Source: an uncultured Candidatus Saccharibacteria bacterium (GTDB taxonomy: Bacteria; Patescibacteriota; Minisyncoccia; Phycocordibacterales; WO2-35-19). From it: DNA of 64,000 bases. The translations under genes and the position numbers were made by a program. A model generated the notes under the pieces. That model did not search any database, was not told where the DNA came from, and saw only the letters and a list, made by a program, of their open reading frames with translations. Shown in pieces: positions 1 through 12,265 of this stretch; the first letter of the stretch is position 1, and every line of letters starts with the position of its first letter. The stretch spans positions 91,882-155,881 of the forward strand of contig CAZPQX010000002.1 in the NCBI GenBank assembly GCA_964589445.1, written 5' to 3'.

Positions 1-254
1 TAAGAGAAGCAAAAATTTTGGAAAATATTTTGGGTAAAGATAGGCTTCAAACAAATGATGTAACTGTAAGTATTGGTATTGCTTTTGGAGACAAGTATTC
101 AAATTGGGAACATATAATGAGCAATGCAGATAACACTGTATATCATTCTAAACACAGTGGTAGGGACAAAGTCTCTGTATTTGACCCAAAGGGTCAAGCT
201 CCTGTCGTTTCTAGTGAAGTCGATATAAATACTCTAAATAATTTCAAATCATAA
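1..254 (+). CDS. GGDEF-domain (diguanylate cyclase-like) protein, C-terminal fragment; 5' end lies outside window
   Basis: Frame continues to window edge; C-terminal GGDEF-like signature SIGIA...ADxxxYxxKxxGRDKV. Confidence 0.5.
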   Translation, partial: REAKILENILGKDRLQTNDVTVSIGIAFGDKYSNWEHIMSNADNTVYHSKHSGRDKVSVFDPKGQAPVVSSEVDINTLNNFKS

Positions 255-258
255 TTTT

Positions 259-522
259 TTGCTGAGTTGTGGGGTTGGTGGTAGGATGAATATTAGGAGA
301 GCTTCTATGTGTCTACGGGAACAGCAAGCTTTTTACCTTTTACCCAAAAGCCTCAATATGATCGGGAGTGTTGAGGGTGGGGGTGGCTTTACCTTGTACT
401 TTAAAAAATGGATTGGCCGCCGCGCCATACCATTTGGGAGAATAAGGTATATTCTCGGTATGACCGGGAAGGAAACTACTGTTAATTTTGACATGGGGCC
501 GCCCGAAAACTTCATCGGGTAG
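259..522 (+). CDS. hypothetical small protein (GC-rich ORFan)
   Basis: 87-aa ORF, GC clearly above neighbouring housekeeping genes; no recognisable motif. Confidence 0.25.
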   Translation: MLSCGVGGRMNIRRASMCLREQQAFYLLPKSLNMIGSVEGGGGFTLYFKKWIGRRAIPFGRIRYILGMTGKETTVNFDMGPPENFIG

Positions 523-552
523 GGCAGAAAGGAGCTTTTTGGAAAAGGCGGG

Positions 553-596
553 GTAAGGGCGGCAGTCTACGGACAGCTGCCCTTTTGAGTTTTTAA
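553..596 (+). terminator. GC-rich hairpin + T-run (repeat copy 1 of 2), terminator-like
   Basis: gggcggcagtctacggacagctgccc followed by ttttgagttttt; near-identical copy at 1189-1232. Confidence 0.5.
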
Positions 597-644
597 ATAT
601 TGTAATTTTATATAAATTGATGTATAATAATAATTAGGCCAGAT

Positions 645-1172
645 ATGTACAAAACGAGTTTGACTAAGCGACAGCTCTCTGCGCTTCGTGCAGAGGGTTT
701 TATTCATGTAACGGGAATGTCATATATCCCTTGTTATGAATCATCGGGCGGTAGGGAGTTTTATTTCCCCGAGTCTCAGCGTGGCAGGTGGGCTGAGCGT
801 GAGGGATTCATACTCGCTGTTCTGTGGAACGGCGAAGTGTGGATGAGGTATTCGGACAAAAATGTCCGATACAAAGAGGATGAGGAAGACACTCCTCTAC
901 TCATCGAAATCCCGACCAAGCTTCTCAATGAGACGCTAGGTCTTACTCGCGTGTCTTTCTCGGTCTTTGGGAGGCGGGGGATAGAGGAAGACAGCTTGAC
1001 GGATGGGTCTTTCCTCGAAGAGGTCTACCCACGGATCGCCAACCCCTACTATGGAGTCCGTTATTCCAATGACCCAAACCCAAACCAACCTCGGAAGAGG
1101 AAGAAGGGTAAAAGAAGAAAACCCAACGAGGTAGATTTCCTCGGGGATGAGTTTCTCCCTGGGAAATTTTAG
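645..1172 (+). CDS. hypothetical protein (GC-rich ORFan) with very basic C-terminal patch PRKRKKGKRRKP
   Basis: 175-aa ORF preceded by AT-rich promoter-like region; flanked on both sides by the same hairpin repeat. Confidence 0.45.
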   Translation: MYKTSLTKRQLSALRAEGFIHVTGMSYIPCYESSGGREFYFPESQRGRWAEREGFILAVLWNGEVWMRYSDKNVRYKEDEEDTPLLIEIPTKLLNETLGLTRVSFSVFGRRGIEEDSLTDGSFLEEVYPRIANPYYGVRYSNDPNPNQPRKRKKGKRRKPNEVDFLGDEFLPGKF

Positions 1173-1188
1173 CAGGCACTTGAGTGTA

Positions 1189-1232
1189 TGTGGGGCGGCG
1201 GTCTTCGGACAGCCGCCCTTTTGAGTTTTTAA
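1189..1232 (+). terminator. GC-rich hairpin + T-run (repeat copy 2 of 2)
   Basis: ggggcggcggtcttcggacagccgccc + ttttgagttttt; compensatory changes keep the stem. Confidence 0.5.
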
Positions 1233-1369
1233 AAATGTTAAAAAAATGGTTGCTATTGTACTTTGTGGTGTGGTCTAATTTGGGAGCAGAAGATTTAAAA
1301 AAGTACATTAAAATGGTAGAGTGTTTTTGTTGTTAATGGGTGCCTTCGCTAAGCTTACGGCAACCCAAA

Positions 1370-1454
1370 GGAGGGTTCGCATAGCGGTCTAGTGCAGTCG
1401 CTTGGAAAGCGGCCGTGGGGAAACCCACCAAGAGTTCGAATCTCTTACCCTCCG
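1370..1454 (+). tRNA. tRNA-Ser (anticodon GGA), long variable arm, CCA not encoded
   Basis: Acceptor GGAGGGT/ACCCTCC, D stem GCA/TGC, anticodon stem GTCGC/GCGGC with loop TTGGAAA, variable arm GTGGG-GAAA-CCCAC, T arm AAGAG-TTCGAAT-CTCTT, discriminator G. Confidence 0.8.
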
Positions 1455-1572
1455 CAATGATCCGCAAGAATGGATGGGAACCATTTGAGCGGGGCATCAT
1501 TTCGAGAGAGGGAAGAGATGAGAAAGACGGAGGCGGTATACAAGCGAGCAAAGCGAGGCTTGTCGCCGAGTC

Positions 1573-1630
1573 GGGGTCGCGGAAATTTTGTGCAACAAAA
1601 TTATCTGTGACCGAATCTCTTACCCTCCGC
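1573..1630 (+). repeat. tRNA-linked conserved hairpin element (GGTCGCGG...CTGTGACC with inner AT hairpin) fused to a 19-nt direct copy of the tRNA-Ser 3' end
   Basis: cgaatctcttaccctccgc at 1612-1630 repeats 1437-1455; the hairpin part is homologous to 8095-8141 next to tRNA-Gly. Confidence 0.6.
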
Positions 1631-1802
1631 TAAAAAACAATGACCTCAGTTTTTTTCTAATAATCACTGGCCTACGGCAGAATACCCTTCATGTCTCTAA
1701 AGATTAAAATATTTTAAATTGGTTCTGACCCATCTTAAAACCAAGCAGGAAAATTTTACTAAGATATCCTTACAAGGCTTGTGAATGTTGGGTAATTATT
1801 AC

Positions 1803-2759
1803 TTAAATTAGCTTATTCACTCTGAATTTATAGAATTCTTGGATAAATATTTTTAACTCCTCGAGTAATTTTTTATTTTGGTGGAAGCCAAATTTTATAG
1901 AATTCATAAGAGTATGATAATTGATAGTTTGGATTAACTCTTTTTTGTCCGTGATATCTTTTCTTTTGGAATTTTTTCCTGTTCCATATTTAGGGTATCT
2001 GGCGATAATCATAATCCTTGGGCTTAAAACAAAAGATTGCTCTCTTGATAAGAAATCATTTCCCCAAAATTTATCACTTAGAGAAATATCTTTATAAGGT
2101 GTATCGGTAGTAATGAATTCTCCTTTGTGTGATATATAAATTATCCAATACTTTGCAGATAATAAATTGCAAAAACCTGGGAAATTTTTAAATAGCTGCA
2201 TATGGTGCATATTCCCAAGATCAACAGAGTACTCTTCTTTGTCTGCAAAATCTATCATATCTTGTTTTGTGAGACCTGCTTTTTCTATCATTTTTTTCAT
2301 TTCTGGATCTTGATTAGAAAAACGAACAATCATCTTATTCATTTCTTTTATAATTCTTTCAGATATCTCCTGGGATTCTTGTCTATGTTTTTTCCCTCGG
2401 ATCCATAGAAATAACATAAATTCCGACAAGTGATATTTATCCACATATGTTATTTCTTGATTTTCCAATATCTTTTTTTCTAAACCTGGTAATTCTTTAA
2501 AGAAGATTGTTTCAATTTCCGTTAGAAATTCCTCCATTGTTTGACTTATATCATCTTCTTTACCAGTATGTTGGGCATAGAAATAGTTCTCATAACAAAA
2601 TCTGCTTGGTCCTGATTTTTCATTGAAAATATTAAGTTCAGGAGGTTCTTTATTTTCTATCCTTATTGGGTAAAAACTCTCTGATGAATCTGTCCATTGT
2701 CTTAGGTAGAATTGAGGAACGTAGTGCTGTTTTATTGTTTTTTGCTTTTCTTTAATCAT
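1803..2759 (-). CDS. DUF4238-family protein (defence-associated family; assignment from N-terminal HYVPQFYL motif)
   Basis: 318 aa; N-terminus MIKEKQKTIKQHYVPQFYLRQW matches my recollection of the DUF4238 hallmark; AT-rich. Confidence 0.5.
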   Translation of the reverse strand: MIKEKQKTIKQHYVPQFYLRQWTDSSESFYPIRIENKEPPELNIFNEKSGPSRFCYENYFYAQHTGKEDDISQTMEEFLTEIETIFFKELPGLEKKILENQEITYVDKYHLSEFMLFLWIRGKKHRQESQEISERIIKEMNKMIVRFSNQDPEMKKMIEKAGLTKQDMIDFADKEEYSVDLGNMHHMQLFKNFPGFCNLLSAKYWIIYISHKGEFITTDTPYKDISLSDKFWGNDFLSREQSFVLSPRIMIIARYPKYGTGKNSKRKDITDKKELIQTINYHTLMNSIKFGFHQNKKLLEELKIFIQEFYKFRVNKLI

Positions 2760-2842
2760 TAATATTAAAGATTCTGTTCTAAATATATCAATATTGCAAT
2801 CTCTAAAATCCCTAAATTTTATTTCAGTGGTATTATTTACTC

Positions 2843-3427
2843 ATGGAAAATGAAGAAGTGGGGGTGGTAGGGAATAGTGCAGAAGGCACTACAGAAAACA
2901 GTGTAGGAGTGCCTAGTGCTGTAGAGGCGCCTGTGGAGTCTAGTGTAGAAGCTCCGCAACCCGTCGCTGATACACCTGTGCAAACAGAAGTACCGGCGCC
3001 CGAGCAGCCTGCTGTAGAAACTCCAGTACAAGTAGAAATGCGTACAGAGTCTGCTCCTAACCCTACTCCTGAACCTGTGGCAGTGCAGAGTGATGCTCAA
3101 TCTACAAACTCAATAACAGAGATGGCTCAAGTGCCAGAGCAGGTGGAGCAGCCTGCAACGGAACCCATGCTTCCTGAGAAAAATAAAAGTTTTATAAAAG
3201 AGCTTTTTGCTAAAGGTGCGGCAAAAATACAACTAAAAAAGAGATTGGGAATAGAAAAAATCATGAGTTTGTTTGCAAAGAAACATCAAATAACAAATGA
3301 CGAGGTGGAGAAAGCTCTGCATGTCTCTGACGCTACAGCTACGAGGTACCTTGAGCAATTAGAAAAGGAAAATAAGATCAAACAAAACGGAAAGACTGGC
3401 AAGGGAGTCACATATACAAAAAACTAG
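2843..3427 (+). CDS. hypothetical protein: acidic P/E/V-rich low-complexity N-half, C-terminal winged-HTH-like segment
   Basis: 194 aa; C-terminal ...ITNDEVEKALHVSDATATRYLEQLEKENKIKQNGKTGKGVTYTK resembles a wHTH DNA-binding domain. Confidence 0.45.
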   Translation: MENEEVGVVGNSAEGTTENSVGVPSAVEAPVESSVEAPQPVADTPVQTEVPAPEQPAVETPVQVEMRTESAPNPTPEPVAVQSDAQSTNSITEMAQVPEQVEQPATEPMLPEKNKSFIKELFAKGAAKIQLKKRLGIEKIMSLFAKKHQITNDEVEKALHVSDATATRYLEQLEKENKIKQNGKTGKGVTYTKN

Positions 3428-3430
3428 GTT

Positions 3431-4813
3431 TTAACTCCTCTGATCCTCTGGGTCAAAGATGGATTTGGGGAGGGGGTCGCCGTTTATGAATTGTGAAATC
3501 CTCTTTGCGCCGAAGATGGAAGGTAAAATGCCGACGCCGTTGCAGCCGAGGTTGTAGAGGAGAGTAGGATTTACTGGCTCGGGACCTACGCGCCTAATAC
3601 CATTTGGAGTGTAGCCCATGAGGCCGTGCCAAGAAAAAGAATATTCTATTTTTTCGCCTGGGTATTTGGCATAATTTTTGCTCAAAAAGTCGTCTATCGT
3701 GTAATTTGTTTCTTCGGAGTGGAAGTCGTGGCGAGAGTAGGAGGCACCGTTTGGCAACACCTTTTCAGGTCCGCCGGTGCAGACTAAGTTGTATGAATCT
3801 TTCCCTTCGTGCTCGTGGGGGCGCCTCGTGAGATAAAAATAATTCTCGCCGGTCGGGTCGCTATTTTTGTCGTTTGTCTTTGGGAAATAGCTTATGGCGA
3901 TGGGGGAGTTGTTCATCGGTTCGAAGTAGCCAGACATGTAGCCGATGCGGCCGTTTACAGAATGATGAAAACTTGTGTCTATGTCACGCCCTGCTTGATT
4001 GTTTATGGTGAAATTTTCAAAACCGTTTGTGCATAGGACCACTCTCTCGGCTATTACTCTATGCTCTAAAACTTTGAGCTCTGTACTTTTTTCTTTGAGC
4101 AGCACTTCTTTGACGGGGCTGCCTTCATAAAAATCAAAACGCTCAGGATATTTGGCTATAAGGTAGCCTAAGAGCTCTTCGGAAAAGAGGGCGCTGTTTA
4201 GACATCCTTTTTGGTAGGAAAGGCAAGCTATGTAATCAGGATTGTCTGTTTCTAAAAGAGACATCAAATCTTTTTGAGGGACTATCTTGTATAAGTCTTT
4301 ATATTCTACGGGTATGTTTTTGAGCTCCGGCCACTCTTCGGCTACTACTATGGACTCGGTTTGCAAGCCGCCCGTGACGCGATGGCGGTTGTTTTGTAAA
4401 TGGAGGATAAGGTTTTCGAAACTAGAAACTCCAGCATAGCCGACAAATCTATACACCGGCACTTGGAGACGCGCTTCTTCTATTATTTCGTCTAGCAAAA
4501 TCCAAGCTGATTCTACTGACCTTTGACCGTCTATCGCCAAATCAAAACCAAACTCTTCTACCAAGTCACTGAGCGGCCTTTCGAAATAGCTGGCTATTTG
4601 CCCGGCGTTGTGACCTGTGGCTCCGTGGGCTACTTTGTCGGCTTCTAGAAGTGTGACTTTTTTGTCTGTATTTTTGAGAGTGAAAAAGGCTGTGGTGATG
4701 CCGGCTATGCCGCCGCCTACGATGGCTACATCGGTACTTATGTCTCCGCTTAAAGGTACGACTGGCCTAGATTGCTTGAGCTGCTGTATCCACGGTGAAT
4801 GGTTGGGTATCAT
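3431..4813 (-). CDS. FAD-dependent oxidoreductase (DAO/glycine-oxidase-like)
   Basis: N-terminal Rossmann dinucleotide motif VAIVGGGIAGITTA; 460 aa. Confidence 0.7.
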   Translation of the reverse strand: MIPNHSPWIQQLKQSRPVVPLSGDISTDVAIVGGGIAGITTAFFTLKNTDKKVTLLEADKVAHGATGHNAGQIASYFERPLSDLVEEFGFDLAIDGQRSVESAWILLDEIIEEARLQVPVYRFVGYAGVSSFENLILHLQNNRHRVTGGLQTESIVVAEEWPELKNIPVEYKDLYKIVPQKDLMSLLETDNPDYIACLSYQKGCLNSALFSEELLGYLIAKYPERFDFYEGSPVKEVLLKEKSTELKVLEHRVIAERVVLCTNGFENFTINNQAGRDIDTSFHHSVNGRIGYMSGYFEPMNNSPIAISYFPKTNDKNSDPTGENYFYLTRRPHEHEGKDSYNLVCTGGPEKVLPNGASYSRHDFHSEETNYTIDDFLSKNYAKYPGEKIEYSFSWHGLMGYTPNGIRRVGPEPVNPTLLYNLGCNGVGILPSIFGAKRISQFINGDPLPKSIFDPEDQRS

Positions 4814-4922
4814 GAGGTTAGATTATACCAAAAAACACAAAATCGGGTATAACAGAAATAAAATTAGCTTCTCTCACTCGATTTAAGTTTTGATTTTTGG
4901 AAAAAGTAGTAGTATTTGGTAA

Positions 4923-5153
4923 ATGAAAGAGAGAATAATAAAAGTAAAAGTGTCGGCGGGGGCAAAGACAGAAAAACTCGAGGAGATTGCTCCTGATGTT
5001 TTTAAGGTGAGGGTGTCTGCTCCGCCAGAAAAGGGGAAGGCAAATGCGAGAGTCGCAGAAATTTTGGCGAAACATTTTGAGGTACCAATGTCGAGAGTAA
5101 TGCTACTCAGTGGGCAGACTTATAGAGAGAAAATATTTTGTATACAAATGTAG
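4923..5153 (+). CDS. DUF167/YggU-family small protein
   Basis: 76 aa; EKGKANARVAEILAKHFEVPMSRVMLLSGQTYREK resembles the UPF0235 signature. Confidence 0.55.
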   Translation: MKERIIKVKVSAGAKTEKLEEIAPDVFKVRVSAPPEKGKANARVAEILAKHFEVPMSRVMLLSGQTYREKIFCIQM

Positions 5154-5156
5154 GTG

Positions 5157-5582
5157 CTAGCAGTCGCCACCTTCAAATTGCTCTAGGGTGCACCAAGGGC
5201 CGCCGCTTGGATCTACTTGCCACACTCCGCCAACTTTCCTTGCATGAATGATTATGTTTCCAAGGTCGCCTTCTTCACCTTTATTTACTATCATCTCCAC
5301 TGCATCATTTTTCCTTTTTTCTATCGATATATCGTATGAATTGGGCACACCTTTTGGAAGTTTGTATTCGTTCATAAAGGTGTCGACGGAATTTTTGAGC
5401 TGTTCTTTTTCGATATCTGAAAGTTCTATATTACTTGTCAGGGTTATCTCATTTTTTATCTGGGCTTTTTGTTCAACTGTAAGGTTGTCTCTGTCACTAG
5501 TATTTTTGTTTGTGTATGTGTAGGTAAATACCCCTGAGGCTAGTATCAGAATAATAAGTATAATTTTTTTATTCTTGGTCAT
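5157..5582 (-). CDS. hypothetical secreted/lipoprotein-like protein
   Basis: N-terminal hydrophobic signal-anchor KKIILIILILASGVF; 141 aa. Confidence 0.4.
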   Translation of the reverse strand: MTKNKKIILIILILASGVFTYTYTNKNTSDRDNLTVEQKAQIKNEITLTSNIELSDIEKEQLKNSVDTFMNEYKLPKGVPNSYDISIEKRKNDAVEMIVNKGEEGDLGNIIIHARKVGGVWQVDPSGGPWCTLEQFEGGDC

Positions 5583-5976
5583 TTATTTTATAAATACTAT
5601 TACAGGAATTAGAGAGATCTTGAATTTTTAATAGCAACTCTTTTAAGTTGCCGCCTTCTGCCATGGTCTGTGCATCGTCTAATTCTTCCCATACAAGCCT
5701 CGCGTAATTATCATCTCCTGAGCGTAACATATAAGTATAGGCAAGCTCTACTCGGAATATCACTTTTTCTTCTAGGGTTGTGCCTGGCCTGTCTGTCTCT
5801 TCGTATCTTTCATTTTTCCATTTAAAAAGTTTTTCTGGACTAAAATCATCCGGTATTTTGCTTAAGTCTAAACCAAATTCTGTAAAAAAAACATCAATCC
5901 TTCTTTTTAAATTTTCAAAGCTTTCTGCAATAGTAACTCTATTTTCTCGTTCAATTTTTTTATTTAAATCTTCCAT
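5569..5976 (-). CDS. hypothetical acidic protein; first gene downstream of sRNA candidate 1 and its terminator
   Basis: 135-aa ORF, overlaps next gene by 14 nt (operon-like). Confidence 0.4.
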   Translation of the reverse strand: MEDLNKKIERENRVTIAESFENLKRRIDVFFTEFGLDLSKIPDDFSPEKLFKWKNERYEETDRPGTTLEEKVIFRVELAYTYMLRSGDDNYARLVWEELDDAQTMAEGGNLKELLLKIQDLSNSCNSIYKINDQE

Positions 5977-6001
5977 GTAATTAAGTATATCAGAATTTTT
6001 T

Positions 6002-6101
6002 TATGAAAATGAAAAGGTCCGAGAGTTCATCACTCTCGGACCTAGGGTGGTAACCGCGGCTCGCTTTTGGAGCGGGCCATGACAGAATTACCATCCCAAC
6101 A
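6002..6101 (-). ncRNA. candidate structured sRNA-1 (~95 nt), identity unknown
   Basis: GC-rich island immediately downstream of a minus-strand TTGACA-N16-TATACT promoter; 5' GGGAUGGUAA pairs with UUACCACCC; ends in hairpin GGUCCGAGAGU...ACUCUCGGACC + UUUUCAUUUU. Confidence 0.4.
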
Positions 6102-6107
6102 TAATTA

Positions 6108-6135
6108 AGTATAGCATATATAAAAAACTTGTCAA
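6108..6135 (-). promoter_or_regulatory. sigma70-type promoter TTGACA-N16-TATACT (copy 1)
   Basis: Plus-strand tgtcaa 6130-6135 and agtata 6108-6113; 16-nt spacer. Confidence 0.55.
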
Positions 6136-6178
6136 GTATGAAAATGAATTATAAATGTATTTAAAAGGGGAGGGTTTT

Positions 6179-6442
6179 TATGAAAATGAAAAGGCTCGGA
6201 GACATCTTACGATAATCTTCCGAGCCAAACTTTAGAAGAGTGATACTTCCTCCCTACGTCTACTGCGAGTCGGCTAAATAGTGCCGCCACCAGACCCCGC
6301 ACATCAGCAACCTGCTGACCGGGGGAGTTAAACATCAGAGCTGTCTCCAGTAGTGGACCGCCTACGCGTATGGGGCGATGAAGAACTAAACGAGCCCGTG
6401 ACGCGCTGCGGCCGACCATAAAACTGGACTACCACTCTTCTG
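6179..6442 (-). ncRNA. candidate structured sRNA-2 (~260 nt), identity unknown (6S/SRP/other not resolvable by eye)
   Basis: Downstream of perfect-consensus TTGACA-N16-TATAAT; 5' CCAGAAGAGUG pairs with 3' CACUCUUCU (closing helix); ends in hairpin GGCUCGGAAG...CUCCGAGCC + UUUUCAUUUU. Confidence 0.45.
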
Positions 6443-6448
6443 GTATCA

Positions 6449-6476
6449 ATTATAGCATATATAAAAAACTTGTCAA
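6449..6476 (-). promoter_or_regulatory. sigma70-type promoter TTGACA-N16-TATAAT (copy 2, perfect consensus hexamers)
   Basis: Plus-strand tgtcaa 6471-6476, attata 6449-6454; surrounding ~80 bp duplicated from 6095-6180. Confidence 0.6.
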
Positions 6477-6522
6477 GTATGAAAATGAATTATAAATGTA
6501 TTTAAAAGGGGAGGGTTTTTAT

Positions 6523-6554
6523 GTATACTTTTGAAAAAGCGGGTATGGTTTAGT
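6523..6554 (+). repeat. partial duplicate of the tRNA-Gly promoter -10 region plus first 16 nt of tRNA-Gly
   Basis: gtatacttttgaaaaagcgggtatggtttagt identical to 7488-7519. Confidence 0.7.
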
Positions 6555-6637
6555 CTGTCTATTGATTAAAATATTTGGTTTGTTATAATTGTATTCATAT
6601 TTGGGGTTACCCACGTTCCCTCGAAAGAGGGAGAATA

Positions 6638-7027
6638 TCATGAATAAAGACGGAGAAATCCGTCCTTTATTTTTATAATATCTTTTTCGTCTAGAGTTCC
6701 CATTTTTTCATACATTCTCAAAAAGCTTAGAACTCTAACTTGTGCTAAGTTGGCGACAATGTCCTTTCCTTGAAAATTTATTTCTGTATACCAAGTTCCA
6801 GTTTTTCCTTTTGTTGAAAGAGGTATCGCGAGGAAACCATTTACACTTAATTTTTTATAAATATAAACTGGTCTAGAAAATGGCTTTCCTTTACCATTGA
6901 CCTCTATTCCTACATTTTCTCCGATAGCACACCACCAAACTTCTCCTTCTTTAAATAAAGGTGGCTTGTGCTCGTTTTTATGAATCTTTTCTTTTAGTCC
7001 AATCCATTCTAAAAATCTTTTTATCAT
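6638..7027 (-). CDS. MazF/PemK-family endoribonuclease-like toxin, no adjacent protein antitoxin ORF
   Basis: 129 aa; KEGEVWWCAIGENVGIEVNGKGKPFSRPVYIYKK...FLAIPLSTKGK...VANLAQVRVLS parallels MazF/EndoA motifs (GDVY..D...G.E..G.RP..V..., P.TS..K, Q.R..D). Confidence 0.55.
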   Translation of the reverse strand: MIKRFLEWIGLKEKIHKNEHKPPLFKEGEVWWCAIGENVGIEVNGKGKPFSRPVYIYKKLSVNGFLAIPLSTKGKTGTWYTEINFQGKDIVANLAQVRVLSFLRMYEKMGTLDEKDIIKIKDGFLRLYS

Positions 7028-7111
7028 TTTTAAAAATTTGTATCTTTTAAAATTAGTTGCATGAGATATTTAAATTATATCAATAAATATGATGATAATG
7101 GTGTTTGTTTA

Positions 7112-7365
7112 GGTAATAAGAAAGACCGCGTCCTATTGGGCGCGGTCTGTGAGGATTCTTGGAGCGTTCCAGTGTTTTCGCTCCTCAGGTCTTTGACCAA
7201 ATGATCCTCTTTGAAAAAGAGTCTGTTTCCAGGTCTCTCTGGAGTAGTGGTTACTGGAAGGAACACACTCCCGACGGGGTTTTCACCTGTCGTAAACTCA
7301 CGAGATAGTCACAACAGACCAATCCATACCACCTCCTTGCGGAGCAGGTAAGCTCGTGATTGTCT
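7112..7365 (-). ncRNA. candidate structured sRNA-3 (~255 nt) transcribed toward the MazF-like gene
   Basis: Starts ~7 nt downstream of TTGACA-N16-TATACT; contains CUCC-GCAA-GGAG (GNRA hairpin) and CACGAG...CUCGUG pairing; ends in AGACCGCG...CGCGGUCU + UUUCUUAUU. Confidence 0.45.
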
Positions 7366-7371
7366 GTTTAT

Positions 7372-7399
7372 AGTATAGCAGAACTATGGAATTTGTCAA
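7372..7399 (-). promoter_or_regulatory. sigma70-type promoter TTGACA-N16-TATACT (copy 3)
   Basis: Plus-strand tgtcaa 7394-7399, agtata 7372-7377. Confidence 0.55.
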
Positions 7400-7503
7400 T
7401 AGCAAAGTTAATTTTGTCTATGAGTATGGCAAAATATGTTTAAAAATAAGGGTTTTTTAGGAATTGGTAAAAATGAAGTACTTTGGTGTATACTTTTGAA
7501 AAA

Positions 7504-7574
7504 GCGGGTATGGTTTAGTGGTAGAATGCGGCCTTCCCAAGGCTGAGACGGGAGTTCGATTCTCCCTACCCGCA
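7504..7574 (+). tRNA. tRNA-Gly (anticodon CCC)
   Basis: Acceptor GCGGGTA/TACCCGC, anticodon stem CGGCC/GGCTG with loop TTCCCAA, T arm GGGAG-TTCGATT-CTCCC, discriminator A; TATACT -10-like element 10 nt upstream. Confidence 0.8.
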
Positions 7575-7583
7575 CACTAAATT

Positions 7584-7868
7584 TTGTTTAAAATTATGTT
7601 CTATGTATATGTTCTCGGTAGTTTGAAAGATAAAGATTTATACATAGGTTCTACTAATGATTTAAAAAGACGGGTGATAGAACATAATTCAGGAAAAGTT
7701 TTATCTACTAAAAATAGAGCCCCGTTTAGTCTCCTTTACTACGAAGCTTATACTACTGAGGGTGAAGCTCGAGATAGGGAGGCTAGTTTAAAACTCCGTG
7801 GTCAAGCTAGAGTCGGCTTGCTAAAAAGGATTTCCTTTACTATAAAACTTTTCAAAAACAAAAATTAG
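7584..7868 (+). CDS. GIY-YIG nuclease-superfamily small protein
   Basis: 94 aa; FYVYVLGSLKDKDLYIGSTNDLKRRVIEHN = GIY-YIG motif; followed by hairpin gtgcgggcgtacccgcac. Confidence 0.7.
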   Translation: MFKIMFYVYVLGSLKDKDLYIGSTNDLKRRVIEHNSGKVLSTKNRAPFSLLYYEAYTTEGEARDREASLKLRGQARVGLLKRISFTIKLFKNKN

Positions 7869-8094
7869 TGTGCGGGCGTACCCGCACAATAAGGAACGAA
7901 GTGACTATATTGTGCGAGGTAAGCAAAGTAAACTGCTTTACTTTGCGTGGGAGTGAGAAGCGAAAACTTGGAGCTTCGCAAGACCTTTGATAATTTTTAT
8001 GAGCTTTGCGAAATAAAAATAGAAAAGGTGTACAGCTTCTGTAGGAAGGCGAAAGCCGCAGGCATGTTTTTTGAGCACAAAAAACAGCCGAGGC

Positions 8095-8201
8095 GGGGTC
8101 GCGGAAATTTTGTTTTGACGAAAACAAAATTATCCGTGACCGATTCTCAGTCTTGCTGATTTTGTTACTGGTCCTGTAAGGACCGATTCTTTACCCGCAC
8201 A
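8095..8201 (+). repeat. tRNA-linked conserved hairpin element (GGTCGCGG...CCGTGACC) followed by two partial direct copies of the tRNA-Gly 3' end
   Basis: Homologous to 1573-1612; cgattctc (8141-8148) and gaccgattctttacccgcaca (8181-8201) echo tRNA-Gly 7557-7576. Confidence 0.55.
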
Positions 8202-8298
8202 TTTTCTATAGAGATAGCTTTGTTGACTTATATACCTAAAAGCTGTACAATATATAGTAGAAAAAGGTTTTGATAAACTCTTCTGAAAGGATGGCACC

Positions 8299-8628
8299 AT
8301 GGCAAAACGCTTTGCACGCTTTAGCGCAAAGGAGATGCAGGAGGCTCAAGAGAGTCTAGCGCAAATGAACTTAACCTGTGCCCGCCTCATCGAATCGATT
8401 TTGAATGTCGTGGATAAGGCCGAGGGAACACCTGCCTATAAGGAATCCCTGAAAGCAAACTTTCTCCTTTCTGCTGCAGGCGTCCTTCTTGGTGAGTCAC
8501 GCACTTCTCAAGGACTCGCCGATTCCTTACAGATGGTCGCAGATGATTTGCGAGAGTGCAAGAATCCGGCTGCAGGCGATGTTGAGGCGCTGGCGCACGC
8601 CATGAGAGCTTGGCTAAAACGCCGGTAG
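8299..8628 (+). CDS. hypothetical protein (GC-rich ORFan)
   Basis: 109 aa; GC-rich relative to flanks; followed by hairpin ctcagccgaaaggttgag + T-run at ~8663-8685. Confidence 0.4.
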   Translation: MAKRFARFSAKEMQEAQESLAQMNLTCARLIESILNVVDKAEGTPAYKESLKANFLLSAAGVLLGESRTSQGLADSLQMVADDLRECKNPAAGDVEALAHAMRAWLKRR

Positions 8629-8710
8629 CCAAAAATCGAACATAACCGAATGGATATGTAAGCTCAGCCGAAAGGTTGAGTTTTTCATTTATTAAAAATA
8701 TAAAAATAAA

Positions 8711-10096
8711 CTAAAGTAGTGAAGCAAGCGTCTTTCGTACCAAGCTATTTTCTTGTTTGTCTTCGATGACGAAACCAGCGGCTTCTATTTCTTTGCGAAG
8801 CTCGTCGCTTCTCTGCCAGTTTTTGTTGCTTCTAGCCTCGTCTCTTTCTTTTTGTGAATCCAAAATTTCTTCGGGGATCTCTGTGAAGAGAGACTCTGAA
8901 ATATTTTCTATATTTAAAGCTAAAACTCCATCTATTTTCCTAATTGCATTTTTGGATTTTGCTTCCTGAAGTAGGGCGATGGCTTTGGGGGTGTTGAGGT
9001 CGTCTGCTATCGCTTCTTCAAATTTTGATATTACCTCACTGTCGCTCTCGCTCGTCTCGGGCAAATCCCTGAAAGAGGCGACTATCTTTTCGAACGCCAC
9101 TTGTGAAGAAGATACCCCCTCCCATGTGAAGTTGGCTGGGGTTTTGTAGTGAGAGGTGAGAAGCCAGTATCGGAAAGATAGGGGGTGGATTTTTCTTTTT
9201 ATTATATCTTCGAGATAAACCACTACGCCTTCTGATTTTGAGATTTTGGCGTCGTCTATCTTGAGGTGATTTCTATGTAGCCAAAATCGTGAGAAAGGGG
9301 AAACACCGGTGTAGCTTTCGGACTGAGCGATTTCGTTGTTGTGATGCACTGGGATGTGCTCGATGCCACCTGTGTGAATGTCTATCTGCTCGCCCAAAAT
9401 ATCGATAATCATGGCAGAGCACTCGATGTGCCAGCCAGGGAAGCCAAGGCCCCAAGGGGACTGCCAGCCTACTTTGCCGTCTTTTTTCCAGAGGATAAAG
9501 TCGGTAGGATTTTTCTTGTTTGTACTTGTCACTCTTTTGCCTTCCTCTAAACCTTCTAGGTTTATGTTTCCAAGCTTGCCGTAATTTGGGAATTTGGCTG
9601 TGTCGAAATATACACCGTTCGAACCGACGTAAGCAAAGCCTTTTTCGAGAAGAGACTCAATCATTTTTATTTGTGAATCTACGTAGTCGGAGGCGTATGG
9701 GAAGATGGTGTCCTCAGTCTTTATGTTTAAGAGGGAGAGACTTGATAGGAAAACCGAGGCGTACTTTTCGGCAAGTTTCCTCATGTTGGCGAGGGTGAGC
9801 TCTAGGCCTTCTCTCTTTAGGCCTTTGGTCATACGGTCTTCGCCTTCGTCAGCTTTGCCCTCGTTGTCGCCTGAGAGGTGGCCGAAGTCTGTGAAGTTGA
9901 TGACTTGCTTTACCAAGAGCCCATCGTGTTCGAGAGTGCGCCTCAATATATCAGTAAAGACATACATGGAAAGATTGCCGATGTGTTGGGGGCCGTAGAG
10001 AGTGGGGCCACAGTGATACATTTTTACTACACCTTTTTCTTGAGGCTCAAAAGTTTCTTTTTTATTGGTCAGTGTATTTGTGAGTTTGATTTGCAT
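8711..10096 (-). CDS. cysS: cysteine--tRNA ligase
   Basis: Class I aaRS motifs HIGN and KISKSEG; CGPTLYGPQHIGN near N-terminus. Confidence 0.9.
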   Translation of the reverse strand: MQIKLTNTLTNKKETFEPQEKGVVKMYHCGPTLYGPQHIGNLSMYVFTDILRRTLEHDGLLVKQVINFTDFGHLSGDNEGKADEGEDRMTKGLKREGLELTLANMRKLAEKYASVFLSSLSLLNIKTEDTIFPYASDYVDSQIKMIESLLEKGFAYVGSNGVYFDTAKFPNYGKLGNINLEGLEEGKRVTSTNKKNPTDFILWKKDGKVGWQSPWGLGFPGWHIECSAMIIDILGEQIDIHTGGIEHIPVHHNNEIAQSESYTGVSPFSRFWLHRNHLKIDDAKISKSEGVVVYLEDIIKRKIHPLSFRYWLLTSHYKTPANFTWEGVSSSQVAFEKIVASFRDLPETSESDSEVISKFEEAIADDLNTPKAIALLQEAKSKNAIRKIDGVLALNIENISESLFTEIPEEILDSQKERDEARSNKNWQRSDELRKEIEAAGFVIEDKQENSLVRKTLASLL

Positions 10097-10105
10097 ATTT
10101 AATTA

Positions 10106-11008
10106 CTACATCCATTTCTTATACTTGAAGTAAGTAAACATGGCAAGGCTCATTAAAATCATGATGCTTATAATTACCCAAAAGTCGTAATTGAGGCCTA
10201 TTAGCGGCATATGTTGAGCATTCATGCCAAATATTGCAGCTACAAGCGATAGTGGGAATGTAACAAATGCAAGTATGGTGAATATCTTCATGGTCTCGTT
10301 TTGTTTGGTGGTCAACATGGAGTTGTTGGTCTCGCGAAGCTCGTCTATTGTGTCAGAAATATTTTTGACCAGTATCATGATCCTCTCCCATTCGCCCATG
10401 AGTTTTTTGGAATCTTTAACAAATTTGTCTCCAAATATGTGACCATGAGAATCTATGAGGGACGACCATATTATTTTTTGAGATCCTATAGTCCTATTGA
10501 TGCTGAGGATCTTCCTGCTTGTATTTGAAATACTCCATACCATCTCTTTTTCGAGACCCTTGAAAATATTTTTTTCAACTTCTTTTATTTCTTCTTGGAT
10601 GTATTCGACTTGATCCATAGCAAATTTGTAAACTTCTTGCATTACAAGAAAGAAAAGGTGGGAATCTTGATTTCGACCTAGTACTTCAGCTACTTCTATT
10701 TGTTTGGAAAAGTGATGTAGGGCATCGATGCTCTCGTACCTGACTGTGACTAGGTTGTTTTTTGTGATCAGGAAATCTATTTCTTGTTCGGAATATTCTC
10801 TTTGTGAGTTTTTGAAAAAGGGAACATGTATCACTGCATAAATCGAGTCACCAAATTCTTCTACTGTTTGTTTGGGTGTGGGTGTTAAAAAGTCTTTGGC
10901 TAGAATCGGGTTTATGCCTTGTGAGATGACTACGGAGTCAATTTCTTCTTTGTTTGGAGAGTTTAAGTCTATCCAGGTCTGCTCATTAAGTTTTCTTGTG
11001 ACTATCAT
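10106..11008 (-). CDS. corA: CorA-family magnesium/cobalt transporter
   Basis: GMN motif (FGMNAQHMP) followed by two C-terminal TM helices. Confidence 0.8.
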   Translation of the reverse strand: MIVTRKLNEQTWIDLNSPNKEEIDSVVISQGINPILAKDFLTPTPKQTVEEFGDSIYAVIHVPFFKNSQREYSEQEIDFLITKNNLVTVRYESIDALHHFSKQIEVAEVLGRNQDSHLFFLVMQEVYKFAMDQVEYIQEEIKEVEKNIFKGLEKEMVWSISNTSRKILSINRTIGSQKIIWSSLIDSHGHIFGDKFVKDSKKLMGEWERIMILVKNISDTIDELRETNNSMLTTKQNETMKIFTILAFVTFPLSLVAAIFGMNAQHMPLIGLNYDFWVIISIMILMSLAMFTYFKYKKWM

Positions 11009-11050
11009 TTTTGATACTAGTTAATTTATGATATATTATAACAGAAAATT

Positions 11051-12265
11051 ATGAATGAAAAATATAAAAATTTAGGGATATCTATTTTCCTTGCAATAGT
11101 GCTCTTGTTTGCAGGGATAAGGATAGGGGAGAATAGAGCGATTAATTCACAAAAGCCTACTGTTTTGTCAGGGCAAAATGCTGCAGCTGTGGATATGGCA
11201 CCGTTTTGGGATGCTTGGAAACTTTTGGATGAGAAGTTTTCTCCTGCTTCTTCGAGTACGCCCGATGTCGAGGCAAAGGACAAAGTTTGGGGGGCGATAC
11301 AGGGTCTCGCTGCTTCTTATGGTGACCCTTATACTGTCTTTTTCCCTCCTGAAGAAGCAAAGATGTTTGAAGAAGAGATTAGCGGAGCATTTGGAGGTGT
11401 GGGTATGGAAATAGGCATACAGGATGGTGTGCTCACTGTGATCGCCCCACTCAAAAACACTCCTGCTTACAGGGCTGGTGTGCAGGCTGGAGATAAGATA
11501 ATTTCTATAAACGGCGCTCCTGCTCTAGATATGAATACCGATGAGGCTATAAAAATAATAAGAGGAGAGATAGGGACTACTGTATCTATAAGTTTCGCAA
11601 GGAAGGGGGAAAGTGCTCCTATAGTAAAAGAGATAACAAGAGCTGCTATAGAAATACCAACTGTAAATACAAAAACTTTGCCAGGAGGTGTCTTCGTGAT
11701 AGAGCTTTACAACTTCTCGGCCAACTCACCGGCTCTCTTCCGTGATTCTCTTAGGGAATTTGTAAATTCTGGAAACGATAAGCTCATAATAGACCTCCGC
11801 AACAACCCGGGTGGCTACCTCGAGGCAGCCCTCGATATGGCGAGCTGGTTCCTTCCTGTGGGTAAGGTGGTAGTAAGTGAAGATTTTGGAAACGGTGTAA
11901 ACCCGAGAGAATATAGAAGCAAGGGTTACGATATATTTACAGACAGACTCAAGATGGCGATACTCGTAAATGGAGGCTCAGCTTCTGCTTCGGAGATACT
12001 TGCGGGGGCACTCAGTGAATATGGCAAAGCAACTCTCATCGGTAGCAAAACATTTGGTAAGGGTTCGGTCCAGGAACTTTTGCCTCTCACAAGCGATACT
12101 TCGCTCAAGATCACCGTTGCACACTGGCTGACTCCAAATGGAAACAGTATTTCAAACGGTGGGCTCGCTCCTGATATTGAAGTAGAAGTAAATGCAGAAA
12201 ATACAAAAGATGGAAATGATCCACAGCTAAATGCAGCGGTGAAATTCTTAACAACAGTGAAATAA
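11051..12265 (+). CDS. ctpA: S41-family C-terminal processing peptidase with PDZ domain
   Basis: PDZ segment GVQAGDKIISING, catalytic region LIIDLRNNPGGYL...GSASASEILAGAL...KTFGKGSVQ. Confidence 0.85.
   Translation: MNEKYKNLGISIFLAIVLLFAGIRIGENRAINSQKPTVLSGQNAAAVDMAPFWDAWKLLDEKFSPASSSTPDVEAKDKVWGAIQGLAASYGDPYTVFFPPEEAKMFEEEISGAFGGVGMEIGIQDGVLTVIAPLKNTPAYRAGVQAGDKIISINGAPALDMNTDEAIKIIRGEIGTTVSISFARKGESAPIVKEITRAAIEIPTVNTKTLPGGVFVIELYNFSANSPALFRDSLREFVNSGNDKLIIDLRNNPGGYLEAALDMASWFLPVGKVVVSEDFGNGVNPREYRSKGYDIFTDRLKMAILVNGGSASASEILAGALSEYGKATLIGSKTFGKGSVQELLPLTSDTSLKITVAHWLTPNGNSISNGGLAPDIEVEVNAENTKDGNDPQLNAAVKFLTTVK

Follow-up and report, generated by a model that had tools for sequence, protein, structure and literature searches.

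In tRNA genes targeted by integrases, the segment from the T-loop to the 3' end is a classic sublocation of insertion. IS200/IS605 insertion sequences (IS) enter their targets without creating a direct repeat, TnpB and IscB omega-RNAs carry guides derived from the flank of the element, and the homing guides of type V-K CRISPR-associated transposons (CAST) match tRNA genes. Here we describe a structured element, hereafter the unit, which follows both tRNA genes (2/2) of a 64,000-nucleotide stretch of an uncultured Candidatus Saccharibacteria genome (the window; GenBank assembly GCA_964589445.1, contig CAZPQX010000002.1, positions 91,882 to 155,881). The unit is ~100-250 nt long, contains no open reading frame (ORF), and combines a conserved three-way-junction core with one antisense and one sense copy of the 3' end of the tRNA gene that it follows. 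Within the limits of the literature and Rfam libraries searched, the element appears to be unreported so far, as a full-text literature search found no description of it and Rfam 15, whose families include tRNA, tmRNA, group I/II introns, self-cleaving ribozymes, and the IS605 and HEARO motifs, gave nothing over it at E ≤ 1 in window positions 1-12000 and nine other loci. If our reading is correct, Patescibacteria carry a widespread conserved element that recognizes the one structural feature common to all tRNAs and transfer-messenger RNA (tmRNA), which would be notable in a group with small genomes that are held to contain little mobile DNA.

A previous inspection of the window (the original prediction) had noted a 19-nt copy of the tRNA-Ser 3' end that is preceded by a hairpin, and the copy is indeed exact, as CGAATCTCTTACCCTCCGC occurs inside tRNA-Ser at 1437-1455 and a second time at 1612-1630. 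The window contains just two copies of the hairpin (GGGGTCGCGGAAATTTTGT..ACAAAATTATCYGTGACC), one at 1573-1612 and the other, as had also been claimed, near tRNA-Gly at 8095-8141. A hairpin pattern found three matches in the window at ≤3 mismatches, two of them exact, which exceeds the chance expectation of 0.25, and three matches were reached in 0 of 100 shuffles. When read against its relatives, the stretch 1456-1630 is one organized unit with the order H0, S1, core (P2 and P3), and direct repeat (DR), which makes the hairpin, here P3, one of the arms of a three-way junction. The features of the Ser locus are as follows.

1370-1455, + strand: tRNA-Ser(GGA) (ARAGORN; Infernal/Rfam tRNA model, 48.9 bits)
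1437-1455, + strand: t, the tRNA-Ser segment C56 to C74, CGAATCTCTTACCCTCCGC, the putative template of both arms
1456-1501, + strand: H0 hairpin with the base AATGAT...ATCATT, which begins directly 3' of C74
1508-1519, + strand: antisense arm S1, GAGGGAAGAGAT, the complement of ATCTCTT(A)CCCTC in the tRNA-Ser 3' end and in the DR
1520-1526, + strand: conserved junction GAGAAAG, a variant of TTCGAAAG
1526-1572, + strand: P2 and the variable hairpin H2; P2 is G-N-C/G-N'-C, here GAC/GTC, with the internal loop GGA/GA
1573-1574, + strand: linker GG
1575-1612, + strand: P3 hairpin (that of the original prediction), with the invariant base GGUCG/UGACC, a conserved G.U, and a bulged A
1612-1630, + strand: DR, an exact sense copy of tRNA-Ser C56 to C74
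1508-1631, + strand: match to the covariance model of the core family (75.2 bits, E = 1e-22)

The tRNA-Ser gene has no encoded CCA (G73 is position 1454 and C74 position 1455), and the closing stem of the junction consists of the antisense and sense copies of its 3' end. The intervening stretch had been described as structured, and 1456-1635 is strongly so, with a folding z = -5.4 relative to shuffles. The conserved H0 base was also found in units behind other tRNAs (L104, L137, L094, L161, L117, and L156; loci outside the window are referred to by L numbers).

The hairpin extends far beyond this genome, as a degenerate P3 pattern scanned over metagenome contigs matched at least 120 of them. 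A covariance model built from 28 copies was run on the metagenome loci derived from this pattern and identified 159 copies, and further divergent copies are present in metagenome-assembled genomes labelled Paceibacterota or Patescibacteria (L002, L005, L017, and L064). The P3 pattern had no match in 2.9 million viral contigs, for which reason a phage origin was rejected. A tRNA gene is located ≤700 nt upstream on the same strand in 114 of the 142 copies having enough upstream sequence, and at least five of the remaining copies follow tmRNA genes. The carrier tRNAs include Ala, Arg, Asn, Asp, Cys, Gln, Glu, Gly, Ile, Leu, Lys, Met, Phe, Pro, Ser, Thr, Trp, Tyr, and Val. Across these ~19 identities, the bases 3' of GTGAC are a copy of the tRNA of that particular locus from C56 on. 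The DR-type copies that had been sought at other loci are present there, and the 19-nt identity at tRNA-Ser is no local accident. The unit is always on the same strand as its tRNA and was found to follow 101 of 162 tRNAs, in loci that were chosen for having a unit. Contigs carry 2-6 copies, which may be arranged in tandem arrays of two to four units (L194, with four, L064, and L096) or interleaved among tRNA genes, as in the L096 array Cys-unit-Leu-unit-unit-Lys-unit-Leu-unit, and several arrays end with partial units (L064, L114, and L119). The tmRNA (ssrA) loci having a unit are L107, L162, L188, L189, and probably L196 and L197, and their repeat matches the tRNA-like 3' end of the tmRNA. 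It should also be noted that the four tandem units of L194 are located behind a tRNA with the anticodon UUA, which ARAGORN reports as tRNA-Stop and which is a possible suppressor tRNA.

The core of the unit folds on the tRNA strand. Among 130 aligned copies, 96% of cells are paired, compared to 75% after shuffling and ≤54% with slid partners, and double-sided changes occur at 31 of the 33 pairs, although the alignment was fitted to the covariance model's own structure, which inflates these pairing counts. The single N/N' pair of P2 is G-C in 41 copies, C-G in 32, A-T in 23, and T-A in 5, and a G.U occupies one pairing position of P3 in 119 of 128 sequences. Because G.U combinations outnumber A.C combinations in the core alignment (252 vs. 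50), the folding strand is that of the tRNA. Compensatory covariation beyond that created by descent or templating is limited to P2, H2, P3, and H3. It does not extend to the closing helix P1, where a compensatory change away from the tRNA sequence was found in only 6 of 483 cells; since both strands of P1 copy the local tRNA, its apparent covariation is no evidence of selection. The two arms of the core, P2/H2 and P3/H3, have conserved bases and variable tips, and their borders read TTCG/AAAG on the left and GTGAC/CGAA on the right, from which it follows that the core is placed inside the palindromic TTCGAA of the T-loop and has CG at either side. In long-form units (e.g., L083, L087, and L166), the optional H2 and H3 extensions contain recurring tandem GA/GA internal loops (CGAG...CGAG) and the loops CAGCAG or GACGG, and their recurrence suggests shared tertiary or protein-binding modules. 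An extra small hairpin (e.g., GCGTAATCGCG or GTGTATTCACGG) separates CGAAT from the 3' strand of the T-stem in the DR of L085, L113, L131, L157, L164, L168, L175, and L181, and this site is a further insertion point within the former T-loop.

Both arms of the unit track the local tRNA. The sequence of S1 is the continuous reverse complement of t over the whole length from the T-loop to C74, discriminator included, which rules out that it copies the 5' acceptor and T-stem strands of the tRNA, and it is often split near position 65/66 by a hairpin, H1. In several units (L002, L191, and L143), t, H0, and S1 together form one long near-perfect palindrome. Close to the T-loop, the arms share an identity of 0.95-0.98 with the tRNA, and this value drops outward to 0.42 for S1 and 0.73 for the DR at C74. 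Of 37 cases with a diverged DR, the better partner of S1 is the tRNA in 31 and the DR in 3. Since each arm follows the tRNA and not the other arm, selection on a long P1 helix was ruled out, and we infer that both arms would have been templated from the target when the unit was made, with copying starting at the T-loop. The DR usually ends at C74, while in some units, such as tandem or partial ones, it extends by 10-29 nt or more into a copy of the trailer. An origin of the DR from mature CCA-tailed tRNA was rejected, as CA follows the DR where the gene has no CCA in only 4 of 41 exact DRs, and a retroviral-type primer-binding site was likewise rejected, since S1 complements the tRNA 3' end but lacks a TGG to pair with CCA. 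Four of the 41 exact-repeat units (L094, L149, L177, and L181) have N73-CCA in the downstream copy, whereas the tRNA gene has N73-C followed by element sequence; these look as if the insertion had split an encoded CCA between C74 and C75. The idea that the hairpin and the adjoining copy form a tRNA-like mini-structure holds insofar as the 3' copy pairs with the internal antisense strand in a continuous acceptor/T-like helix, and complete antisense arms also pair the discriminator and C74, but the Rfam tRNA model gives no score.

At the second tRNA of the window, tRNA-Gly, a gene-bearing cassette and a composite unit are found in succession.

7504-7575, + strand: tRNA-Gly(CCC) (ARAGORN and Rfam tRNA model); A73 is 7574 and C74 is 7575
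7576-7888, + strand: GIY-YIG cassette directly after C74 (Pfam PF01541, E = 1e-14)
7889-8200, + strand: composite or nested non-coding unit
7911-7921, + strand: anti-acceptor TGTGCGAGGTA, within the composite
7922-7947, + strand: H1 hairpin, within the composite
7948-7960, + strand: TGGGAG+TGAGAAG, within the composite
8037-8160, + strand: match to the covariance model of the core family (98.5 bits, E = 2e-30)
8097-8141, + strand: P3 hairpin of the Gly unit, followed by CGATTCTC
8170-8184, + strand: remnant of a second core type, GGTCCTGTAAGGACC, within the composite; reads GGTCCTGTAAGGACC/GATTC, to 8189
8184-8200, + strand: degenerate copy of the tRNA-Gly 3' end, CGATTCTTTACCCGCAC, behind a second mini-hairpin

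The region corresponding to 1456-1635 has a folding z = -8.8 relative to shuffles, and the same composite is present in a 97% relative (L208). Compensatory changes had been claimed between the Ser and Gly hairpins; the stems are instead identical, and the Gly hairpin differs by a longer apical stem (TTTT/AAAA with a GACG loop) and one U-to-C change that turns a G.U into a G-C. Likewise, the proposed fusion of this hairpin to tRNA-Gly copies applies to the 8 nt that follow it directly (CGATTCTC), while the only fuller copy is the degenerate one at 8184-8200. The GIY-YIG cassette consists of a left inverted repeat ACTAAATTT, a 90-amino acid ORF (7596-7868) whose product has the GIY-YIG catalytic domain, and a right inverted repeat AAATTAGT. 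It ends in the hairpin GTGCGGG-CGT-ACCCGCAC, in which the 3' acceptor strand of tRNA-Gly is copied first in antisense and, after a loop, in sense, and the cassette end repeats in miniature the antisense-loop-sense design of the unit. The GIY-YIG protein has 465 homologues, mostly from Patescibacteria, and its closest relatives (66-77% identity; L002-L005) have the same anatomy behind tRNA-Gly(TCC/GCC) in other Patescibacteria. More distant GIY-YIG genes (L006, L028, L031, L053, L072, L076, and L078) directly precede a tRNA, whose 5' part, up to positions 1-36, is duplicated at their flanks. The ORF of L078 has its start codon within the copied anticodon stem, and some of the duplicated 5' parts are additionally broken by small GC-rich palindromes. 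A second core type (..GGTACTGACCCTGTAAGG/KTCGA) has the same position after the tRNA and the same antisense plus sense arm design as the unit. It was found in L160, L179, and L198 as ..CCCGATTG..CAATCGGGGTACTGACCCTGTAAGG/KTCGA, with the remnant at window positions 8170-8189. As the unit, the second core type, and the GIY-YIG cassette all share the slot after C74, this slot is used by at least three kinds of insert.

The presence of units varies between related genomes. In L191, a complete unit is located directly after C74 of tRNA-Asp, while the closely similar L198 has no unit there and shares the downstream sequence; L198 does hold the same core as L191 farther down a shuffled array. The tRNA-Gly(CCC) of L202, a relative with 74% identity in cysteinyl-tRNA synthetase (CysRS), has neither the GIY-YIG cassette nor a unit, unlike that of the window, and tRNA-Arg(TCG) is followed by a unit in L002 and L005 and by none in L004. 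Judged by its CysRS and GIY-YIG homologues, the organism of the window belongs to the Paceibacteria-type Patescibacteria. Cores ~90% identical were found at different tRNAs on different contigs.

The reading that we favor, with about even confidence, is that the units are a selfish family of ORF-less structured cassettes that targets tRNA and tmRNA genes in their segment between T-loop and C74 and has arms templated by the target. In the window, the cassette would most likely be transcribed as the 3' trailer of its tRNA, as no promoter-like or terminator-like site separates the two. Such a cassette could spread to any gene having a T-arm and an acceptor 3' strand. Copying would start at the palindromic T-loop TTCGAA and run outward on both sides, and the arms would then decay except for the few pairs that close the junction. 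The tRNA would stay intact because the cassette inserts after C74 and supplies the DR as a partner for its own antisense strand. Recombination between the t repeats would lengthen, shorten, and reshuffle the arrays, and the copying enzyme that makes new copies would act in trans. GIY-YIG endonucleases, which use the same slot, are a candidate for this enzyme. Their physical coupling to the units is weak, however, with GIY-YIG genes in 5 neighborhoods among 131 hairpin-pattern occurrences and a confident unit in 4 of 80 GIY-YIG loci. Neighbor ORFs clustered around the 131 occurrences yielded no enriched family, only occasional GIY-YIG genes, and Pfam scans of the ORFs within ~5 kb of both window loci revealed no integrase, transposase, or reverse transcriptase.

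Several points weigh against this reading. No enzyme is linked to the units, which leaves any transposition chemistry hypothetical; to our knowledge, no documented mechanism gives an insertion flanked by inverted and direct ~19-nt copies of its target. The filled and empty sites of L191 and L198 are equally readable as a deletion between direct repeats. Core identity is 0.49 within one locus and 0.485 between loci, and recent intragenomic bursts were rejected on the grounds that copies from the same locus are no more alike than those from different loci. The inflated pairing counts mentioned above belong here as well, and so do the many H0 hairpins that resemble terminators and would limit read-through transcription. 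Lastly, the deep conservation and covariation of the core across lineages whose CysRS are 55-75% identical would fit a host-useful RNA just as well.

This last possibility, that tRNA operons have in the unit a host-useful 3' trailer RNA (for instance, a module for processing, stability, or termination, or else a stable small RNA that tRNA-processing enzymes release) whose arms merely close the fold, is one that we hold to be conceivable, if on the unlikely side. It would account for the strong covariation and the invariant junction nucleotides over >150 copies as well as for the constant orientation, and it agrees with the unit behind each of the two window tRNAs. Units interleaved inside tRNA arrays (L096 and L134) must moreover be co-transcribed, and in the window no promoter-like or terminator-like site was found between tRNA-Ser and its unit. 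A host function is harder to reconcile with up to four tandem units behind one tRNA, with the same tRNA having a unit in one genome and none in a related one, or with the tRNAs without a unit that remain even in loci selected for having one (only 101 of 162 have it). The decay of the distal arms also speaks against it, as does the use of the same slot by a homing-endonuclease-type gene and by a second core type with the same arm design. With regard to the transcript itself, the predicted minimum-free-energy fold of 1370-1650 has a swapped topology, in which the downstream DR is the partner of the tRNA 5' strands, while the 3' end of the tRNA itself is paired to S1. The modeled molecule would be tRNA-like with a ~175-nt insertion in its T-loop. 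It is nearly isoenergetic with a normal tRNA followed by a self-closed trailer, and co-transcriptional folding should favor the normal tRNA.

It is unlikely, in our judgment, that the unit is a new class of mobile element in which the P2/P3 core, as a small structured nucleic acid, homes to the universally conserved T-loop palindrome of tRNA and tmRNA genes and builds its closing helix by copying the target outward on both sides, being itself either ribozyme-like or the scaffold of a guide that recruits an unlinked enzyme. If this were the case, every tRNA gene of Patescibacteria would be a landing pad that is not inactivated by insertion.

Distinctly improbable is a fold that acts in single-stranded DNA, with hairpins recognized by a trans-acting, single-strand-specific enzyme such as an HUH/Y1 transposase, Rep, or attC-type recombinase, which would liken the unit to IS200/IS605 elements, to repetitive extragenic palindromic (REP) sequences and their REP-associated tyrosine transposases (RAYT), and to T-shaped parvoviral ends. 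The T- or Y-like shape of two hairpin arms closed by an inverted repeat is suggestive of this, as are the conserved hairpin bases with tips that are free to vary and the tandem arrays ending in partial units, such as rolling-circle copying would give; the many terminator-like H0 hairpins would also block transcription. However, no HUH, TnpA, or TnpB gene was found among the neighbors of the hairpin-pattern occurrences or near the window loci, and the conserved G.U together with abundant G.U intermediates is more typical of RNA. The direct repeat speaks against IS200/605 in particular, as these elements leave none, and thus also against the original prediction's IS200/605 alternative.

We consider it very improbable that the unit is a guide RNA in which the core is a protein-binding scaffold and either S1 (5') or the ~19-nt DR (3') directs a nuclease or recombinase encoded elsewhere to tRNA genes or tRNAs. 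A scaffold beside a target-matched segment of 16-21 nt is the layout of omega-RNAs and CRISPR RNAs (crRNA), and S1 adheres to the sequence of the actual tRNA and not to that of the DR. On the other hand, the neighbors of the hairpin-pattern occurrences include no partner protein, the distal guide positions decay to an identity of 0.42 at C74, and S1 and the DR are mutually complementary and would therefore mask each other as guides.

The remaining explanation, that these are attR or attP-arm remnants left by islands that a tyrosine integrase had placed in the tRNA T-loop, is scarcely tenable: the direct repeat from the T-loop to the tRNA 3' end is as expected of such scars, and the original prediction was right that a family of elements is joined to tRNA-specific 3' cores at different tRNAs, but there is no integrase near the window loci and none is enriched among the neighbor ORFs of the 131 hairpin-pattern occurrences, the unit spans only 100-250 nt, the same core occurs at ~19 tRNA identities rather than at one or a few tRNAs, decaying arm-type sites would not be expected to show its conservation and covariation in >150 copies, the unit contains an antisense arm, which att sites lack, and there are tandem arrays and no match in the 2.9 million viral contigs.

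The genes adjoining the two loci were inspected as well. Directly downstream of the Ser unit (1803-3427) are a gene that had been correctly assigned to DUF4238 and one for a 194-amino acid protein with a C-terminal winged-helix domain, and no link between either gene and the unit was found. A MazF/PemK-like toxin gene and a small ORF just upstream of it adjoin the tRNA-Gly locus, and these may be a toxin-antitoxin pair.

1803-2759, - strand: DUF4238 gene (Pfam E = 1.9e-31)
6638-7027, - strand: MazF/PemK-like toxin gene (Pfam E = 7.5e-7)
7075-7266, - strand: small ORF just upstream of the toxin gene

Should the units be selfish tRNA-targeting cassettes as we favor, their target-copied arms and T-loop-seated core would be without a match among the transposons, introns, and integrative elements described so far, and they would be a new structured RNA or DNA family with catalysis, protein recruitment, and tRNA-scaffold hijacking as candidate activities. 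For annotation, this would mean that duplicated tRNA 3' ends in Patescibacteria should not be counted as prophage or island boundaries. Two catalytic RNAs were compared and rejected. A group I or II intron in the T-loop would end in C rather than G and would not start with GUGYG, and there is no Rfam match. The type II hammerhead, whose core has CUGANGA and GAAA in a three-way junction, has a fitting helix order, but the junction strands of the unit are NNGAAAG, GG, and GA, and CUGANGA is absent from the consensus.

The unit shares features with a number of described systems. Like the islands and prophages that tyrosine integrases insert into tRNA and tmRNA genes, it targets the 3' part of the gene, creates a direct repeat from the T-loop to the 3' end, and leaves the tRNA intact, whereas it has no integrase, measures 100-250 nt instead of kilobases, carries an antisense copy of its target, forms tandem arrays, and has one conserved core at nearly all tRNA identities and tmRNA. 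Miniature inverted-repeat transposable elements (MITEs), REP sequences, and REPINs are similarly small, ORF-less, multi-copy, rich in hairpins, closed by inverted repeats, and presumably mobilized in trans. In contrast to these, the inverted arms of the unit copy each local target and are not element-specific, it is strictly confined to the ends of tRNA and tmRNA genes, and its core covariation is RNA-like and strand-specific. With the ends of IS200/IS605 and with TnpB/IscB omega-RNAs, the unit has in common a structured scaffold beside a flank-derived sequence of ~16-20 nt and subterminal hairpins; it differs by the direct repeat of ~19 nt, the internal antisense arm, and the lack of TnpA, TnpB, or IscB nearby, and no Rfam omega-RNA or IS605 motif matched within it. 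Free-standing GIY-YIG cassettes (e.g., T4 SegB in a tRNA cluster) parallel it in that a GIY-YIG gene occupies the same slot after C74 with the same end design, except that the hairpin unit has no ORF and is rarely coupled to such genes physically. The closing helix, a T-stem stacked on the acceptor 3' strand of a specific tRNA, recalls acceptor/T minihelices and the tRNA-like domain of tmRNA, but in the unit the T-loop is replaced by the core, the complete arm pairs the discriminator and C74, and the tmRNA models, as with that for tRNA, give no score. Finally, the order t, reverse complement of t, t is that of tandem inversion duplications, with a long palindrome at the first junction and the palindromic T-loop at the second. 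Core-less versions of this order were found at 1 of 212 tRNAs, that one having a 6-nt gap in place of a T-loop, whereas in the unit the second junction is the exact site of a foreign, conserved core of 60-110 nt, by which it differs from such duplications.

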